A stretch of 64,000 nucleotides of DNA from an uncultured Aureibaculum sp. (GTDB lineage: Bacteria; Bacteroidota; Bacteroidia; Flavobacteriales; Flavobacteriaceae): positions 1,911 to 65,910 of the forward strand of contig CAXBMA010000008.1 of NCBI GenBank assembly GCA_963976855.1. The letters run 5' to 3'. The notes below the pieces were generated by a model that was not told where the DNA came from, ran no database searches, and was given only the letters and a program-made list of their open reading frames with translations. Positions 17,025-23,423 of the stretch are shown here, piece by piece (the stretch's first letter is position 1; each line of letters starts with the position of its first letter). Both the position numbers and the translations under genes were made by a program.

Positions 17025-17227
17025 GTTGGGTTTCTTTTGAAATATTTTCTACTCCTACTTATAGGTGCACGACTTATATTACAACTATTTTATGTTGAAT
17101 ACTTTAGACGTCTAACTTTCATTAGTGCTTTTTCTTTGAAATGTTAAAATTCCAATTTGTTTTCTTTCTGAGCATAAAAAAATTATATTTGTAGTAACGC
17201 TAAACATAATAATTACTTCTAAACTGC

Positions 17228-18073
17228 ATGAATATAGCCATACAAGGGATACAAGGGTCTTTTCACCACTTGGTAGCTTCTAATTATTTTGGTGATAACA
17301 ATACATTTACTGAGTGTATGTCTTTTGATGAAATACCTGAGCTATTGCGAAATGGTTCAGTAGATGCTGCTGTTATGGCCGTGGAAAATTCAAACACAGG
17401 ATCTATTTTAGCCAATTACGGATTGATAGACAAATATGACCTAAACATACAAGGTGAAGTCTATATGCCTATGTTACATAATGTTATGGCGCTTAAGGGG
17501 CAAGAAATAACTGACATAAAAGAAATCTGGTCACACCCAATTGCAATTCAACATTGCGAACGCTTTTTTAGAACCTATCCTCACATAAAAATTATGGAAG
17601 AGAAGGATACTGCCTTTGTAGCAAAACAAATCAAAGAAAAGAAATTGAAAGGAGTGGCTGCAATCGCAAGTAAAAAAGCAGCTGAAATATACAAGTTGAA
17701 GATTCTTGAAGAGCAAATCCAAACAGACACTCTTAATATGACTCGCTACTTTATTTTAACAAAGAATAGAGATTTTGAGGCAGATATACATCGCAATAAT
17801 AAGACTTCATTAAAATTTACCGCGCAGGATGAAATAGGAAGCCTGGCAAAAATTTTGACAATCTGTGCCGAGTATCATTTAAATGTATCGAAAATTCAGT
17901 CAATGCCAATTGCAAATGAACCTTGGAATTATGCTTTTTTTATTGATTTTATCTATGACGATTATTTAAACTACTGCAATGCCTTATTAATTCTAGAAAA
18001 AGAAGTGGATAGCTTGAAAATTTTGGGTGAATATTCAGAAAACAAACCCTCAGCAAAAAAATTGATTGCGTAA
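17228..18073 (+). CDS. pheA: Prephenate dehydratase, paralog 1 (PDT + ACT domain)
   Basis: IAIQGIQGSFH, VENS, WSHP, NMTRYF, GSL, IQSMP, EPWNYAFFID. Confidence 0.9.
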   Translation: MNIAIQGIQGSFHHLVASNYFGDNNTFTECMSFDEIPELLRNGSVDAAVMAVENSNTGSILANYGLIDKYDLNIQGEVYMPMLHNVMALKGQEITDIKEIWSHPIAIQHCERFFRTYPHIKIMEEKDTAFVAKQIKEKKLKGVAAIASKKAAEIYKLKILEEQIQTDTLNMTRYFILTKNRDFEADIHRNNKTSLKFTAQDEIGSLAKILTICAEYHLNVSKIQSMPIANEPWNYAFFIDFIYDDYLNYCNALLILEKEVDSLKILGEYSENKPSAKKLIA

Positions 18074-18170
18074 TAAGGATTGATTTTTAACCGAATTAAT
18101 TAGAATCTATACCAATAGAACGCTTAATTATTAGGAAAATCACAAAAAACAAGGCAAAACATTAAAAAAA

Positions 18171-18201
18171 TTTGTTTTTAAAAGTTTAATTTATAGATTT
18201 G
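18171..18201 (+). promoter_or_regulatory. Bacteroidota promoter of the aromatic operon leader
   Basis: TTTG at 18171-18174 and TAGATTTG at 18194-18201 with a 19-nt spacer, matching the -33/-7 consensus. Confidence 0.8.
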
Positions 18202-18219
18202 CTGCATAATTACACGTAG

Positions 18220-18303
18220 ATGAAATTAACAAATACTTGGCAAGCTTATTTTTACTTCTTTTATTTTTATAAGATGAGGCGAGGCTTTGTAGGTATTATG
18301 TAG
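18220..18303 (+). CDS. Attenuator leader peptide, 27 aa: MKLTNTWQAYFYFFYFYKMRRGFVGIM
   Basis: Manual translation; 8 consecutive Tyr/Phe codons (4 each) plus a Trp codon, located between the promoter and a terminator upstream of pheA-tyrA-DAHPS. Confidence 0.85.
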   Translation: MKLTNTWQAYFYFFYFYKMRRGFVGIM

Positions 18304-18330
18304 ATATAAAAATCAATAATATAATCAACT

Positions 18331-18359
18331 AAAGTCTCGATAATCGAGGCTTTTTTTTT
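18331..18359 (+). terminator. Attenuator intrinsic terminator
   Basis: AAAGTCTCGA-taa-TCGAGGCTTT (10 bp, one G-U) within a T9 run ending 10 nt before the pheA start. Confidence 0.88.
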
Positions 18360-18369
18360 GTTCGTTATT

Positions 18370-19221
18370 ATGAGTAGCATAAAAAAGAAAATAGCAATTC
18401 AAGGAATCAAAGGGTCATTTCATCATCAAGTGGCTCATCTTTACTTTGGTGATGCAATTGAATTGAATGAATGTCTGTCTTTTGTAGAAATACCAGAGTT
18501 GATTAACACCAATCAAGTTGATGCTGCGGTAATGGCTATAGAAAATTCTTTAGCGGGTGCTATTTTACCAAACTATGCACTGATTGATGAATATAATTTA
18601 AAAATTCAAGGCGAAGTTCATTTACCCATTCACCACCATTTAATGGGGTTAGAAGGACAAACCTTAGAAGATATTAAAGAGGTGTGGTCGCACCCTATGG
18701 CACTTTTACAATGTAGAACGTTTTTTAGGTTGCATCCACAGATAAAATTAGTGGAAGAGTCTGATACCGCAGAAGTTGCCCAAAGAATTCAGAACCAACA
18801 ACTTAGAGGAGTCGCAGCCATTGCAAGTAAAAAGGCCGCTGAAATTTATCGGCTCCATATTATTGAAAGTGAAATACAAACGCGCAAAGAAAACTTTACA
18901 CGTTTTTTTATTCTAAAAAAACAGAATGGGAGATTGGATCCTCCGAAAAACGTGAATAAGGCGTCCTTAAAATTTATAACCAAACATCAAACGGGAAGTT
19001 TAACAGATGTACTCAATGTTTTTGCCAGTTTAAATATGGGCTTGACTAAAATTCAATCGTTACCAATTATTGATGAACCTTGGAATTACGCATTTTTTGT
19101 GGATATTATTTTTGATGATTATCTGATATTTCAACAAGCAATAAATAAGATTCAAGAAAAGTCGAGTAGTTTAAAAATTTTAGGAGTATACCAACAAAGT
19201 AAACGCAATTATGATCTCTAA
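18370..19221 (+). CDS. pheA: Prephenate dehydratase, paralog 2 (PDT + ACT domain); first gene of the attenuated operon
   Basis: IAIQGIKGSFH, IENS, WSHP, NFTRFF, GSL, IQSLP; ATG at 18370 preferred over the TTG at 18358. Confidence 0.92.
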   Translation: MSSIKKKIAIQGIKGSFHHQVAHLYFGDAIELNECLSFVEIPELINTNQVDAAVMAIENSLAGAILPNYALIDEYNLKIQGEVHLPIHHHLMGLEGQTLEDIKEVWSHPMALLQCRTFFRLHPQIKLVEESDTAEVAQRIQNQQLRGVAAIASKKAAEIYRLHIIESEIQTRKENFTRFFILKKQNGRLDPPKNVNKASLKFITKHQTGSLTDVLNVFASLNMGLTKIQSLPIIDEPWNYAFFVDIIFDDYLIFQQAINKIQEKSSSLKILGVYQQSKRNYDL

Positions 19222-20359
19222 AGCAAACAGATTAAACCAGGTAAAAGAGTATTATTTCTCTAGTAAATTACGAGAAGTGAACCAGCTGAGGGCTGAAGGT
19301 AAACCTATCATAAATATTGGTATTGGTAGCCCTGATTTGCAACCGCCTATTCAGGTAATAGAAGCAATTCAGCAAACATTGACCTTGCCAACCATTCATG
19401 GCTATCAAAGCTATCAAGGATTACCTGAATTTAGAGCGGCTGTTGCTGCATTTTACCAGAGAAATTATAATGTTATTGTAAACCCTACTGATGAAATATT
19501 ACCATTGATGGGCTCAAAAGAAGGCATTATGCATATTTCAATGGCCTTTTTAAATAAGGGTGATCAAGTGCTGATTCCCAATCCGGGATATCCCACGTAT
19601 ACTTCGGTTACTAATTTACTAGAAGCAACTCCTGTTTATTATAATTTAACGGAAGCTACCAACTGGTTTCCAAACTTTGAAGAACTTGAAAAGCACGATT
19701 TGTCTAAAGTGAAAATAATGTGGATTAACTATCCTCATATGCCTACTGGTACAAAAGCAACAACAAAGTTGTTTGAACAATTAGTTGCCTTTGCTAAAAA
19801 ACATAAGATCCTGTTGGTGAATGACAATCCGTATAGTTTTATACTGAATGACAATCCGCAAAGTATTTTGGAAATTGATGGAGCTAAAGAAGTTGCTTTG
19901 GAGCTGAACTCGTTAAGTAAATCTTTCAACATGGCCGGTTGGCGTGTTGGGATGATTTTAGGTGCTGCCGAACATATTAAAACGGTGCTTCAGGTAAAGA
20001 GTAATATGGATTCAGGGATGTTTTACGGAATTCAACAAGGAGCTATTGCAGCTCTAAATGTTGCTAATAGTTGGTTTAAAGAAATGAATGCCATTTATGA
20101 AAAACGCCGAATGATCGCTTGGCAAATTTTTGATGAATTAAACTGTACCTATACTAAAGATAGCGCAGGACTTTTTGTGTGGGCACGCATCCCTCAAGGG
20201 AAAAAAGCAACACAATTGACAGATGAACTATTGTACCAACACGATGTGTTTTTAACACCAGGTACGGTTTTTGGAACAAATGGAGAAGGTTATATCAGAA
20301 TGTCGCTCTGCATTTCTGAAGTTAAATTAAAAGAGGTATTGACAAGAATTCAAAACTAA
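19211..20359 (+). CDS. PLP-dependent aminotransferase class I/II (probable aromatic/prephenate aminotransferase)
   Basis: GIGSPD, GSKEG, NYPHMPTG, NDNPY, NSLSKSFNMAGWRVG; operon context. Confidence 0.88.
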   Translation: MISKANRLNQVKEYYFSSKLREVNQLRAEGKPIINIGIGSPDLQPPIQVIEAIQQTLTLPTIHGYQSYQGLPEFRAAVAAFYQRNYNVIVNPTDEILPLMGSKEGIMHISMAFLNKGDQVLIPNPGYPTYTSVTNLLEATPVYYNLTEATNWFPNFEELEKHDLSKVKIMWINYPHMPTGTKATTKLFEQLVAFAKKHKILLVNDNPYSFILNDNPQSILEIDGAKEVALELNSLSKSFNMAGWRVGMILGAAEHIKTVLQVKSNMDSGMFYGIQQGAIAALNVANSWFKEMNAIYEKRRMIAWQIFDELNCTYTKDSAGLFVWARIPQGKKATQLTDELLYQHDVFLTPGTVFGTNGEGYIRMSLCISEVKLKEVLTRIQN

Positions 20360-20365
20360 ACAAAG

Positions 20366-21220
20366 ATGAATAAAATTGCAGTTATCGGTTTGGGGTTAAT
20401 AGGAGGATCATTAGCATTAGAGCTAAAGAAACTTTCATGGGCCACAATTTATGGTATTGATAACAATCCTAAACATTTACAACAGGCACTTGATTTAGGT
20501 ATCATTTTTAAAAAAGCTAGCTTGGCAATAGTAAAAGAGGTCGATGTAGTCATTATTGCCGTTCCGGTAAATAAAATACCAAAAATTGCCGTTGAGGTAC
20601 TGGATCTTATTCAAGACACTACTTTAGTTTTTGATGTAGGGTCAACGAAAGAAGCTGTTTGTAAGGCTGTTAAGGGTCATCCGAAGCGAGAAAATTTTGT
20701 TGCTGTACATCCTATTTCAGGAACCGAATTTTCCGGACCGCAAGCTGCCATTTACAACCTATTTACCGATAAGGTCAATATTATTTGCGAACAACATTTA
20801 AGTAGTAAAAAAATGGTAGACAGAACAGTTGCCTTATTTGACAAAATGCAAATGCGAACCGTTTTTATGGATTCGGCAGAACAGCACGATAAACATATTG
20901 CTTATGTATCTCATTTGTCACATATCAGTTCATTTATGTTAGGTAAAACAGTTTTAGAAATTGAAAAGGATGAGAAAAGTATTTTTAATATGGCGGGTAG
21001 TGGATTTGAATCAACAGTGCGACTAGCTAAAAGTAATCCGGCAACTTGGACTCCTATTTTTTTACAAAACAAAGAGAATATATTAAAATCATTAAACGAG
21101 TATATAAAGAATTTAGAATCATTTAAAGAACTAATTGAAGTTGAAGCATCTGATGAAGTGTTTGCTGTGATGCAAAGCACCAATCGCATTAAAAGTGTCT
21201 TGGCGGGAATTAAAAAGTAA
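20366..21220 (+). CDS. tyrA: Prephenate dehydrogenase
   Basis: GLGLIGGSLA Rossmann motif, DVGSTK, HPISGTE, HDKHIAYVSHLSH, GFESTVRLAKS. Confidence 0.93.
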   Translation: MNKIAVIGLGLIGGSLALELKKLSWATIYGIDNNPKHLQQALDLGIIFKKASLAIVKEVDVVIIAVPVNKIPKIAVEVLDLIQDTTLVFDVGSTKEAVCKAVKGHPKRENFVAVHPISGTEFSGPQAAIYNLFTDKVNIICEQHLSSKKMVDRTVALFDKMQMRTVFMDSAEQHDKHIAYVSHLSHISSFMLGKTVLEIEKDEKSIFNMAGSGFESTVRLAKSNPATWTPIFLQNKENILKSLNEYIKNLESFKELIEVEASDEVFAVMQSTNRIKSVLAGIKK

Positions 21221-21229
21221 AAACAAATT

Positions 21230-22309
21230 ATGGAATCAACAAATTTTTCAACATGGTTGCAAAACATGGAATTAGCACACCCATTAGTGATCGCAGGACC
21301 ATGTAGCGCAGAAACAGAAGAACAAGTATTGGCAATTGCACATGAACTTAAAAAAACAGATGCAACCGTCTACAGAGCAGGTATCTGGAAACCTAGAACA
21401 CGTCCTGGAAATTTTGAAGGAAATGGAGCGAAAGCATTGCCATGGATAGCAAAAGTAAAGGAAGAAACAGGAATGTTAACAACCGTAGAGGTTGCCAATG
21501 CCCAACATGCTAAACTCGCCTTGGAGTTTGATATTGATATTATTTGGATTGGAGCGCGTACAACGGTAAATCCATTTGCAGTGCAAGAAATAGCAGATGC
21601 TTTACAGGGAACGGACAAAATAGTTTTGGTGAAAAATCCAATCAACCCAGATTTAGACTTGTGGATTGGTGCTATTGAACGTTTTCATACGGCAGGAATT
21701 AAAAACTTAGGAGCGATTCACAGAGGCTTTTCTTCATTTAAGAAAACAAAATACAGAAACAATCCACAATGGCAAATACCAATTGATCTAAAAAGTAGAT
21801 TTCCAACATTGCCAATTATCTGTGATCCTTCACATATTTGTGGTGAACGCGATGGAATTTTTGATGTTTCACAAACCGCACTAGATTTGAAATTTGAAGG
21901 CCTAATGATTGAAACTCATTGTGATCCTGACAATGCATGGAGTGATGCCAAACAGCAAATCACACCAGCTAGATTGAATGAGATAACTGAGGAGTTGAAA
22001 GTCCGTAAAGGTCGTGTTGTAGAAGAAGGGTCACTTAAAAAATTAACTGAATTACGAAGTGAAATAAATATTTTAGATAACCAATTGATTGAAATGTTGG
22101 CAGATAGAATGCAGGTTGCTGAGAATATTGGGAAGGTAAAAAAGGAGTCGAATGTTGCAATTTTACAACGAAGTAGATGGCAAGAAGTGATTCAGAAAAT
22201 GGTAATTGATGGTGAAAAACAAGGATTGAGCGCTGAATTTGTAGAGAAAATATTTAAAGCAATTCATCAAGAATCAATTGAGCATCAAAAGAAAATAGTA
22301 AATAGTTAG
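21230..22309 (+). CDS. Bifunctional DAHP synthase (type I-beta) / chorismate mutase
   Basis: IAGPCSAE, WKPRTRPG, IGART, VKNP, IHRG, CDPSH, IETH; C-terminal CM domain LRSEINILD..RM..IHQESI. Confidence 0.93.
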   Translation: MESTNFSTWLQNMELAHPLVIAGPCSAETEEQVLAIAHELKKTDATVYRAGIWKPRTRPGNFEGNGAKALPWIAKVKEETGMLTTVEVANAQHAKLALEFDIDIIWIGARTTVNPFAVQEIADALQGTDKIVLVKNPINPDLDLWIGAIERFHTAGIKNLGAIHRGFSSFKKTKYRNNPQWQIPIDLKSRFPTLPIICDPSHICGERDGIFDVSQTALDLKFEGLMIETHCDPDNAWSDAKQQITPARLNEITEELKVRKGRVVEEGSLKKLTELRSEINILDNQLIEMLADRMQVAENIGKVKKESNVAILQRSRWQEVIQKMVIDGEKQGLSAEFVEKIFKAIHQESIEHQKKIVNS

Positions 22310-22351: not shown

Positions 22352-23386
22352 ATGAGTTTTAAGTCAAGTCATATCTTAGTAATTCGTCTCTCAGCAATGG
22401 GAGACGTTGCTATGTGTGTTCCGGTTTTAAGAGCTTTTGTAAAGCAAAACCCAACAATAAAAATTACGGTGTTATCTAGGACATTTTTTAAACCAATGTT
22501 TGACGACATTGAAAATGTCAGCTTTTTTGCAGCGGAGGTATCGGGTAAACATAAGGGTGTTTTGGGGTTGTTTAAATTGTATTCTGAATTAAAGCCATTG
22601 AAAATTACCGCAATAGCGGATATGCACAATGTATTGCGCTCAAAAATTTTACGTTTTTATTTTTCATCTACGCGTGTACAACATGCCGTAATTGATAAGG
22701 GGAGGCTTGAAAAAAAGGCACTTACTAGAATAAAAAACAAAAAGCTTCAGCAATTAAAAAGTTCACACGAACGGTATGCCGACGTATTTAGAGCATTAGG
22801 ATTTGAACTCGATTTGTCAAACCCTATGTTTCCAATAAAAAAGACACTTAGTGAAGAAACACTTCGACTAACAGGAGCCGATCATTTAAAGTGGATTGGG
22901 ATTGCACCCTTTGCACAATACCAATCTAAAATGTACCCCTTAGATTTAATAGAAAAAGTGATTTCTAAATTAGCAGTAACCAATCAATATAAAATTTTCC
23001 TTTTTGGAGGAGGGAAAAAAGAGATACAACTATTGGATGATTTAAGTACCCATAAGAATGTTGTTAATATTGCAGGTAAATTAAAGCTGAAAGAAGAACT
23101 CAATCTAATGGCCCATTTAGACTGTATGCTTAGTATGGATTCAGCAAATTCGCATTTAGCGGCTATGCAAGGTGTAAAAATTATTACGCTTTGGGGTGTT
23201 ACGCATCCTTATGCGGGATTTGCACCGTTTAACCAGGCAGTGAATCAGATGCTTTTGCCCGATTTAGAGAAGTATCCAAAGTTACCCTGCTCAATTTATG
23301 GTAATAAGGTACTCAAAGGGTATGAGGAGGTAATGCGAAGCATACCACCCGAGCGTGTAGTTGAAAAAATTGTAGAAATAACTTAA
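22352..23386 (+). CDS. Glycosyltransferase family 9 (heptosyltransferase-like)
   Basis: LVIRLSAMGDV, DMHNVLRS, SMDSANSHLA, LWGVTHP. Confidence 0.88.
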   Translation: MSFKSSHILVIRLSAMGDVAMCVPVLRAFVKQNPTIKITVLSRTFFKPMFDDIENVSFFAAEVSGKHKGVLGLFKLYSELKPLKITAIADMHNVLRSKILRFYFSSTRVQHAVIDKGRLEKKALTRIKNKKLQQLKSSHERYADVFRALGFELDLSNPMFPIKKTLSEETLRLTGADHLKWIGIAPFAQYQSKMYPLDLIEKVISKLAVTNQYKIFLFGGGKKEIQLLDDLSTHKNVVNIAGKLKLKEELNLMAHLDCMLSMDSANSHLAAMQGVKIITLWGVTHPYAGFAPFNQAVNQMLLPDLEKYPKLPCSIYGNKVLKGYEEVMRSIPPERVVEKIVEIT

Positions 23387-23423
23387 TTAAAAAACCCAAC
23401 GAGAATCGTTGGGTTTTTTAATT
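23385..23423. terminator. Bidirectional intrinsic terminator
   Basis: AATTAAAAAACCCAACGA-gaa-TCGTTGGGTTTTTTAATT perfect 18-bp inverted repeat between convergent genes. Confidence 0.9.

Follow-up and report, generated by a model that had tools for sequence, protein, structure and literature searches.

In Escherichia coli, pheA alone is subject to attenuation and tyrA is under the control of TyrR. Multivalent attenuators are also known from this organism: the leader of thr holds Thr and Ile codons, that of ilvGMEDA holds Leu, Val and Ile codons, and any one shortage relieves termination. The Bacteroidota are largely without Shine-Dalgarno-led initiation. Here we describe a leader region of the attenuator type from an uncultured Aureibaculum sp. 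of the Flavobacteriaceae (assembly GCA_963976855.1), lying in the 296-nucleotide (nt) spacer that separates two prephenate dehydratase genes (17228-18073 and 18370-19221). Coordinates are those of a 64,000-nt stretch of contig CAXBMA010000008.1 (positions 1,911 to 65,910), referred to below as the window. The second gene, pheA, is followed by genes for an aminotransferase, for TyrA and for a bifunctional DAHP synthase/chorismate mutase (DAHPS/CM), and, judged from sequence and its comparison among relatives, the region is very probably a transcription attenuator of the classical ribosome-mediated kind; it would be bivalent for Phe and Tyr and control this pheA-aminotransferase-tyrA-DAHPS/CM operon.

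The closest described system is the attenuation element THC0290_N_0195 of the Flavobacterium psychrophilum pheA-aspC3 mRNA (Guerin et al. 2021, ISME Commun, PMC9723704, Table S7 and SI D9), for which a transcription start was mapped and the 5' transcript segment was quantified separately. Read-through at that element was reported in nutrient-poor (minimal) medium, and the authors state that it is conserved in other Flavobacteriaceae genera and is without an Rfam hit. As in the window, it precedes pheA and then an aminotransferase gene, carries tandem aromatic residues in a 27-codon leader (MNTNNTFYSNNSFYFYWNIGRDCYMVI) and ends in a terminator with a U-tract. The segment that could compete with this terminator, termed region 2 below (GGGATTG), is found 10 nt 3' of the codon run and complements the terminator 5' arm at -11 kcal/mol, the same geometry as here. 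The two differ in genus and in the run itself, which is shorter and interrupted in F. psychrophilum (FY..FYFYW) but reads YFYFFYFY in the window, where the operon also has tyrA and DAHPS/CM directly downstream and a second prephenate dehydratase gene upstream of the attenuator. The window element is therefore not new, being an orthologue of the published element with a textbook mechanism, and it opens no new mechanism or question. What the present work adds, and the published paper does not have, is an analysis of covariation and of the distribution beyond the family.

More distant systems share parts of this design. The enterobacterial pheL-pheA leader (RF01859; Gurvich et al. 2011, PMC3082878) likewise has a Phe-codon leader, alternative hairpins and an intrinsic terminator before pheA, whereas the leader here mixes Tyr with Phe in 27 rather than 15 codons, and the operon that it precedes serves the synthesis of Phe as well as of Tyr, with a DAHP synthase among its enzymes. 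In the same paper it is remarked that Bacteroides may use a pheL gene; our literature searches for earlier Bacteroidota pheA leaders returned, beyond PMC9723704, just this one-line remark. The thr and ilvGMEDA attenuators are alike in that a single leader holds codons for several amino acids, but they differ in amino acids, pathway and phylum and have no sequence relationship to the window element. Within the phylum, the Bacteroidetes tryptophan peptide leader RNA (Rfam Bacteroid-trp; Weinberg et al. 2010, as cited in the supplementary information of PMC9723704) is a leader-peptide attenuator of the same design, and the genome studied here has such a leader (MNTILNNTWWWYSRNANFVK) before trpE. 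It differs in its Trp codons, in serving the trp operon and in being catalogued in Rfam, where the pheA element is not.

A search of the region against Rfam 15 gave no family at threshold and no match to the T-box or to any other riboswitch. The only match, below threshold, was RF01859 Phe_leader at 18232-18359 (28.9 bits, E = 0.064 over 4 kb), an alignment carried by the U-rich codons and the terminator; membership of this family was rejected, the gathering score being 55.

Anatomy of the leader region

The spacer holds, in this order, a promoter, a 27-codon open reading frame (ORF), an intrinsic terminator and the pheA start codon (Table 1). The leader stop codon at 18301 is separated from the pheA ATG by 66 nt. 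Eight codons for Tyr and Phe stand before an operon with both pheA and tyrA, and the terminator follows the leader ORF and precedes pheA. In the 3.28 Mb genome, which has a G+C content of 34%, T-rich ORFs are common. Even so, among the 55,705 ORFs with an ATG start and a length of 8-60 codons on its two strands, the leader is the sole one with eight aromatic residues (F/Y/W) in an eight-residue window; ten ORFs have seven of eight and 102 have six. The leader ORF is accordingly beyond chance.

The terminator scan returned AAAGTCTCGA-TAA-TCGAGGCTTT at 18331-18353, a helix of 10 pairs (4 G-C) followed by nine T residues up to 18359. The letters CGAGGCTTT are present twice, at 18280-18288 (region 2) and at 18345-18353 within the terminator 3' arm, and their complement AAAGTCTCG is found at 18331-18339. 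Region 2 can for this reason form an antiterminator helix with the terminator 5' arm, and this helix and the terminator are mutually exclusive. The duplex has a predicted energy of -12.2 kcal/mol, compared with -4.9 in shuffled sequences (z = -4.1), and the leader RNA as a whole is more stable than its dinucleotide shuffles (z = -2.46).

Upstream of the ORF, TTTG-N19-TAGATTTG (18171-18201) is the single match to the Bacteroidota-type pattern TTTG-N19-TAnnTTTG in the window. Some 0.9 matches per window are expected by chance and the count by itself proves nothing; a TAnnTTTG box does, however, end 16-20 nt 5' of the leader ATG in 60 of 69 relatives. Transcription probably starts a few bases 3' of the -7 box, as the position of this box suggests.

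The region had come to attention through a model's reading of the sequence (the original prediction), in which every coordinate was found to be as given. Its translation of the 27-codon ORF, with eight consecutive Tyr/Phe codons and a Trp codon upstream of them, agrees with ours, and the terminator that it drew at 18331-18359 was recovered as a stem with nine T residues. It was also right that 18280-18288 has the letters of the terminator 3' arm and could pair with the 5' arm in its place, that the leader ATG lacks an A at -3, and that the operon comprises pheA, an aminotransferase gene, tyrA and DAHPS/CM, as Pfam and NCBIfam matches agree. The consensus promoter that it named stands as a pattern whose box position is kept in relatives; its occurrence in the window is compatible with chance.

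Table 1. Positions of the leader, operon and related features. Positions are those of the window, except for the last three rows, where the contig handle of the same genome precedes the position.
Feature	Position	Strand	Remarks
-33-like TTTG of Bacteroidota-type promoter	18171-18174	+	From sequence; part of the TTTG-N19-TAnnTTTG match
-7 box TAGATTTG	18194-18201	+	Consensus TAnnTTTG; ends 18 nt 5' of leader ATG
Leader peptide ORF, 27 codons and TAG	18220-18303	+	Translates to MKLTNTWQAYFYFFYFYKMRRGFVGIM
Region 1, leader-ORF segment, putative anti-antiterminator	18229-18264	+	Minimum-free-energy partner of region 2 (18269-18301)
Single Trp codon	18238-18240	+	Three codons 5' of the Tyr/Phe run; from translation
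Run of 8 consecutive Tyr/Phe codons, YFYFFYFY	18247-18270	+	Codons 10-17; proposed ribosome stalling site
Region 2, antiterminator 5' arm CGAGGCTTT	18280-18288	+	Same letters as terminator 3' arm; complements 18331-18339
Span around inner antiterminator stem (18295-18301/18319-18325)	18295-18325	+	Present here, not kept in relatives
Region 3, terminator 5' arm AAAGTCTCGA	18331-18340	+	Common to terminator and antiterminator helices
Region 4, terminator 3' arm TCGAGGCTTT	18344-18353	+	Terminator scan
T9 tract of intrinsic terminator	18351-18359	+	Ends 10 nt 5' of pheA ATG
pheA, prephenate dehydratase	18370-19221	+	First gene after attenuator; Pfam PF00800, E = 8.5e-57
Class I/II aminotransferase	19211-20359	+	Pfam PF00155, E = 7e-67
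tyrA, prephenate dehydrogenase	20366-21220	+	PF02153, PF20463; NF006307, 350 bits (cut-off 295)
Bifunctional DAHP synthase/chorismate mutase	21230-22309	+	PF00793, PF01817
Candidate His leader MNFIQLHHHHFHNCTQAK	C3 211290	-	Before hisG; terminator follows
Candidate Trp leader MNTILNNTWWWYSRNANFVK	C4 40821	+	Before trpE; terminator follows
Candidate Ile/Val leader MQNAIIIIILVIIISVLI	C7 87916	-	Before ilvD; terminator follows

Conservation of the leader and its reading frame

A scan of species-representative genomes with PheA gave 80 loci of 53-81% identity, and a Phe/Tyr-rich leader ORF was found 5' of the pheA homologue in 74 of the 76 testable relatives. An ATG-ORF scan (18-29 codons, 6-8 F/Y/W in an eight-residue window, 130-300 nt 5' of pheA) recognized the leader in 71 of the relatives' loci. 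Outside these 71, among the loci whose upstream DNA was long enough, two leaders have a GTG start codon, one element stands 5' of an inserted gene, one locus has a 1-nt frameshift, and in two no Phe/Tyr leader was found.

At each of the 71 loci an ATG ORF spans the run in the Phe/Tyr frame, while the other two frames are so covered in only one and two loci, which argues that the run is read as codons. Substitutions within it are TTT/TTC and TAT/TAC swaps or exchanges between Phe and Tyr. The residues beside the run vary by subgroup (NTWQAYFYFFYFY..., NWFYFYFFTK, AYFSFFFYFYF...) and the run itself is kept; this was the outcome of a check put forward with the original prediction, in which the regions upstream of pheA in Flavobacteriaceae were to be aligned for a conserved aromatic-codon run. 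At least four Phe and at least two Tyr codons occur in or near the run in all 71 leaders, and a Trp codon near it in 39.

Spacing is fixed as well. The distance from the leader ATG to the end of the terminator is 121-141 nt in all 68 aligned non-identical sequences, and region 2 follows the end of the run by 8-18 nt in 70 of 71 loci; the stop codon varies in position, from 6 to 36 nt after the run.

The GTG-start and frameshift leaders are at L019:1357-1491, L043:1356-1485 and L046:1377-1502 (locus handles), two of the three using GTG. In L046, from a metagenome-assembled genome, a 1-nt deletion right after the ATG puts the Phe/Tyr run out of frame, and is either an assembly error or a sign of leader decay. 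At L072:451-1500 the attenuator is intact and a 197-residue ORF (beginning MKTIPFEPSKYYHFFNRG) is inserted between it and pheA; its HFHLVFR motif is one that we take to be like that of IS200/REP-associated tyrosine transposases.

Conservation and covariation of the helices

Helices were assessed on the alignment of 68 sequences, with slid helices or shuffled sequences as controls. A strong hairpin with a T-run follows the leader ORF in all 71 loci analysed in detail. The terminator helix is 95.7% paired over the alignment, against 22-58% when slid, with compensatory changes in six of its 10 pairs; it is independently predicted by RNAalifold, and the U-tract after it is kept in all 68 aligned sequences.

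Pairing in the antiterminator helix reaches 83.7%, compared with 23-48% in slid controls, and its pairs 68/125 and 70/123 (alignment positions) covary among A-U, G-C and G-U with no unpaired cell. In 67 of 71 single loci a stretch able to pair with the terminator 5' arm scores z < -2 against shuffles, and this stretch and the arm change jointly, as in CGAGGC/GCCTCG, GGGAC/GTCCC, ATCAGGA/TCCTGAT and CGGAAC/GTTCCG. The covarying stems that the original prediction had proposed to look for across relatives are thus found in both of the competing helices, the capture of the terminator 5' arm by region 2 included.

When the nascent RNA is folded with a ribosome footprint on the run, the minimum-free-energy structure contains the helix between region 2 and region 3 (the 2:3 helix) in 68 of 69 loci; with no footprint it does so in 40 of 69. 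The full-length RNA gives the terminator in 68 of 69. Single-sequence folds of nascent RNA predict that region 2 pairs with leader sequence 5' of it in 65 of 69 loci, the partner differing by subgroup (the run itself in 37, codons 5' of the run in 28).

One further stem had been proposed, ATTATGT/ATATAAT at 18295-18301/18319-18325, as an extension of the antiterminator over the leader stop codon. The stem exists in the window and shows in the fold in which the terminator 3' arm is blocked, but on the alignment 41.5% of its cells are paired compared with 43.7% in shuffles, and it was rejected as a conserved feature.

Proposed mechanism

The arrangement is that of PheL/TrpL-type attenuators, as had been proposed for it, and the conserved in-frame ORF, the fixed spacing, the compensatory changes and the genes of the operon back this assignment. 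RNA polymerase would start a few bases after the -7 box, and a ribosome would translate the 27-codon leader. When charged tRNA-Phe and tRNA-Tyr are ample, the ribosome would pass the YFYFFYFY codons toward the stop codon and either disrupt or cover region 2 or leave it paired with region 1; the terminator, with its U9 tract, could then form, and transcription would end 10 nt before pheA. When either amino acid is scarce, the ribosome would be expected to stall in the run, mask region 1 and free region 2. Free region 2 could pair with the terminator 5' arm once that arm is made, no terminator would form, and the polymerase would read into the operon. Read-through should in this way respond to the supply of both Phe and Tyr, an expectation for which the mapped start and conditional read-through of the F. 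psychrophilum orthologue are indirect support.

Several observations weigh against this scheme or reduce what can be drawn from the folds. With the run masked, the full-length leader still favours the terminator at equilibrium, and the switch must therefore be kinetic, like the E. coli trp attenuator. Folding under ribosome masking, suggested at the outset as a check, hence agreed for the nascent 2:3 helix and disagreed for the full-length RNA. Region 2 begins 9 nt after the last Tyr codon of the run, so that stalling at the final one or two codons would leave it partly hidden under the ribosome. The helix between regions 1 and 2 that is seen in the window stands out little on the alignment, being 63.5% paired against 47-56% when slid. 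As the search for region 2 takes the best complement by construction, the folding tallies lean toward the model, and independent support comes from the covariation counts and the fixed spacing. Lastly, the base at -3 of the leader ATG is T, and an A is found at this position in only 33 of 70 relatives.

Alternative explanations

The leader could also be a trivalent aromatic sensor, in which stalling at the Trp codon frees region 2 as well, with the hairpin in addition gating the initiation of pheA translation. We consider this extended reading doubtful, and Trp sensing by the leader is only a possibility. If true, a single attenuator would report a shortage of any aromatic amino acid to an operon that contains the common-pathway DAHP synthase.

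It is very unlikely that control is mainly translational, with alternative folds or re-initiation setting pheA translation, or that the hydrophobic peptide acts in trans. The hairpin does end 10 nt 5' of the pheA ATG, and leader genes near structural genes have been proposed to aid re-initiation, Bacteroidetes included (PMC4833913). The stem is, however, a canonical G+C-rich one with a U9 tract that is kept throughout the alignment, and at 66 nt from the pheA ATG the leader stop is too distant for coupling. In F. psychrophilum, moreover, the 5' segment and the coding genes have separate transcript levels and read-through is conditional (PMC9723704). A trans-acting leader peptide is known from Sinorhizobium (PMC7298713), but the peptide encoded here is not conserved between groups outside the run.

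Still less probable is an RNA switch that is real but not read by a ribosome, a protein or an uncharged tRNA binding the U-rich segment (TRAP-, PyrR- or T-box-like) and the ORF being a by-product. Covariation of terminator and antiterminator fits any antitermination mechanism, and the run is a low-complexity U/A-rich stretch. Against this stand the in-frame ATG (GTG in two) before the run in 74 loci, when an ATG serves the other frames in only 1/71 and 2/71, and the changes seen in the run, which are synonymous swaps and Phe/Tyr exchanges; leaders for His, Trp and Ile/Val built on this plan also occur in the genome, and Rfam gave no T-box or other riboswitch family match.

Least probable of all, the hairpin at 18331-18359 would merely end or insulate transcription of the prephenate dehydratase paralogue upstream, the ORF having arisen by chance in AT-rich spacer DNA. 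The terminator scan did find nothing else from 18073 to 18331, and read-through from the upstream gene would end at the hairpin too. The hairpin lies, however, 258 nt after the paralogue and behind a conserved promoter box, the paralogue was detected in only seven of 80 loci when the element is found in 74 of 76 testable loci and in 131 of 150 sampled genera, the ORF is unique in the genome, and a simple terminator would have no use for a region 2 that covaries with it.

Distribution and sister leaders

A covariance model was built from the 68-sequence alignment and run on 150 sampled genera of the family, then on the class. It finds the element in 131 of the 150 genera, nearly always as one copy per genome, and with this distribution, its architecture and its gene order the window element belongs to the THC0290_N_0195-type pheA 5' elements of the Flavobacteriaceae. 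At class level the model matches in many other families, and all 11 loci fetched from them have an F/Y-rich leader about 180 nt upstream of a pheA homologue of 39-46% identity. One of these families provides a locus (L086, G293:C2:274225-274510) in which two complete F/Y leader-terminator units, with the leaders MNNTFTNNSFYFFYFFSKG and MTLTITYFNFYFFYFFSKSRLGM, stand in tandem before pheA. In the genome of the window itself, a second, weak model match at C12:54937-55089 (E = 0.005) was rejected; it is the 3' end of a gene with its terminator and not a leader.

Three further candidate attenuators were found in this genome: leader ORFs rich in His, Trp and Ile/Val codons, each with a terminator, precede hisG, trpE and ilvD, respectively (Table 1). 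The His leader is closely like the published F. psychrophilum His leader.

The value of the element is mainly one of annotation, as neither Rfam 15 nor the gene calls include it though it is present in most sampled Flavobacteriaceae genera and in other families of the Bacteroidia. A curated model, for example from the 68-sequence alignment, would let pipelines mark it. The element further strengthens the case that Bacteroidota depend on attenuation coupled to translation in their Phe/Tyr, His, Trp and branched-chain amino acid operons.

Operon genes and neighbouring features

The four genes of the operon were assigned by their domain matches (Table 1). The pheA product also matches NCBIfam prephenate dehydratase models, yet below their cut-offs.

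The tandem prephenate dehydratase genes on either side of the attenuator, both on the + strand, are 55.5% identical. The upstream copy (17228-18073) has a Pfam ACT match and its own TAnnTTTG box at 17184-17191; a leader ORF and a terminator of its own are both absent. One prephenate dehydratase copy would thereby escape the leader promoter, and its read-through transcripts would meet the attenuator. An upstream copy was detected in only seven of the 80 loci (L002, L004, L008, L009, L010 and L049, with a partial match in L001), and L008 may hold a third copy.

Downstream, a gene for a family 9 glycosyltransferase (heptosyltransferase-like) starts 42 nt after the DAHPS/CM gene (window 22352-23423). 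As this gene ends at a strong terminator of the bidirectional type (23385-23423), it may share a transcript with the aromatic operon.

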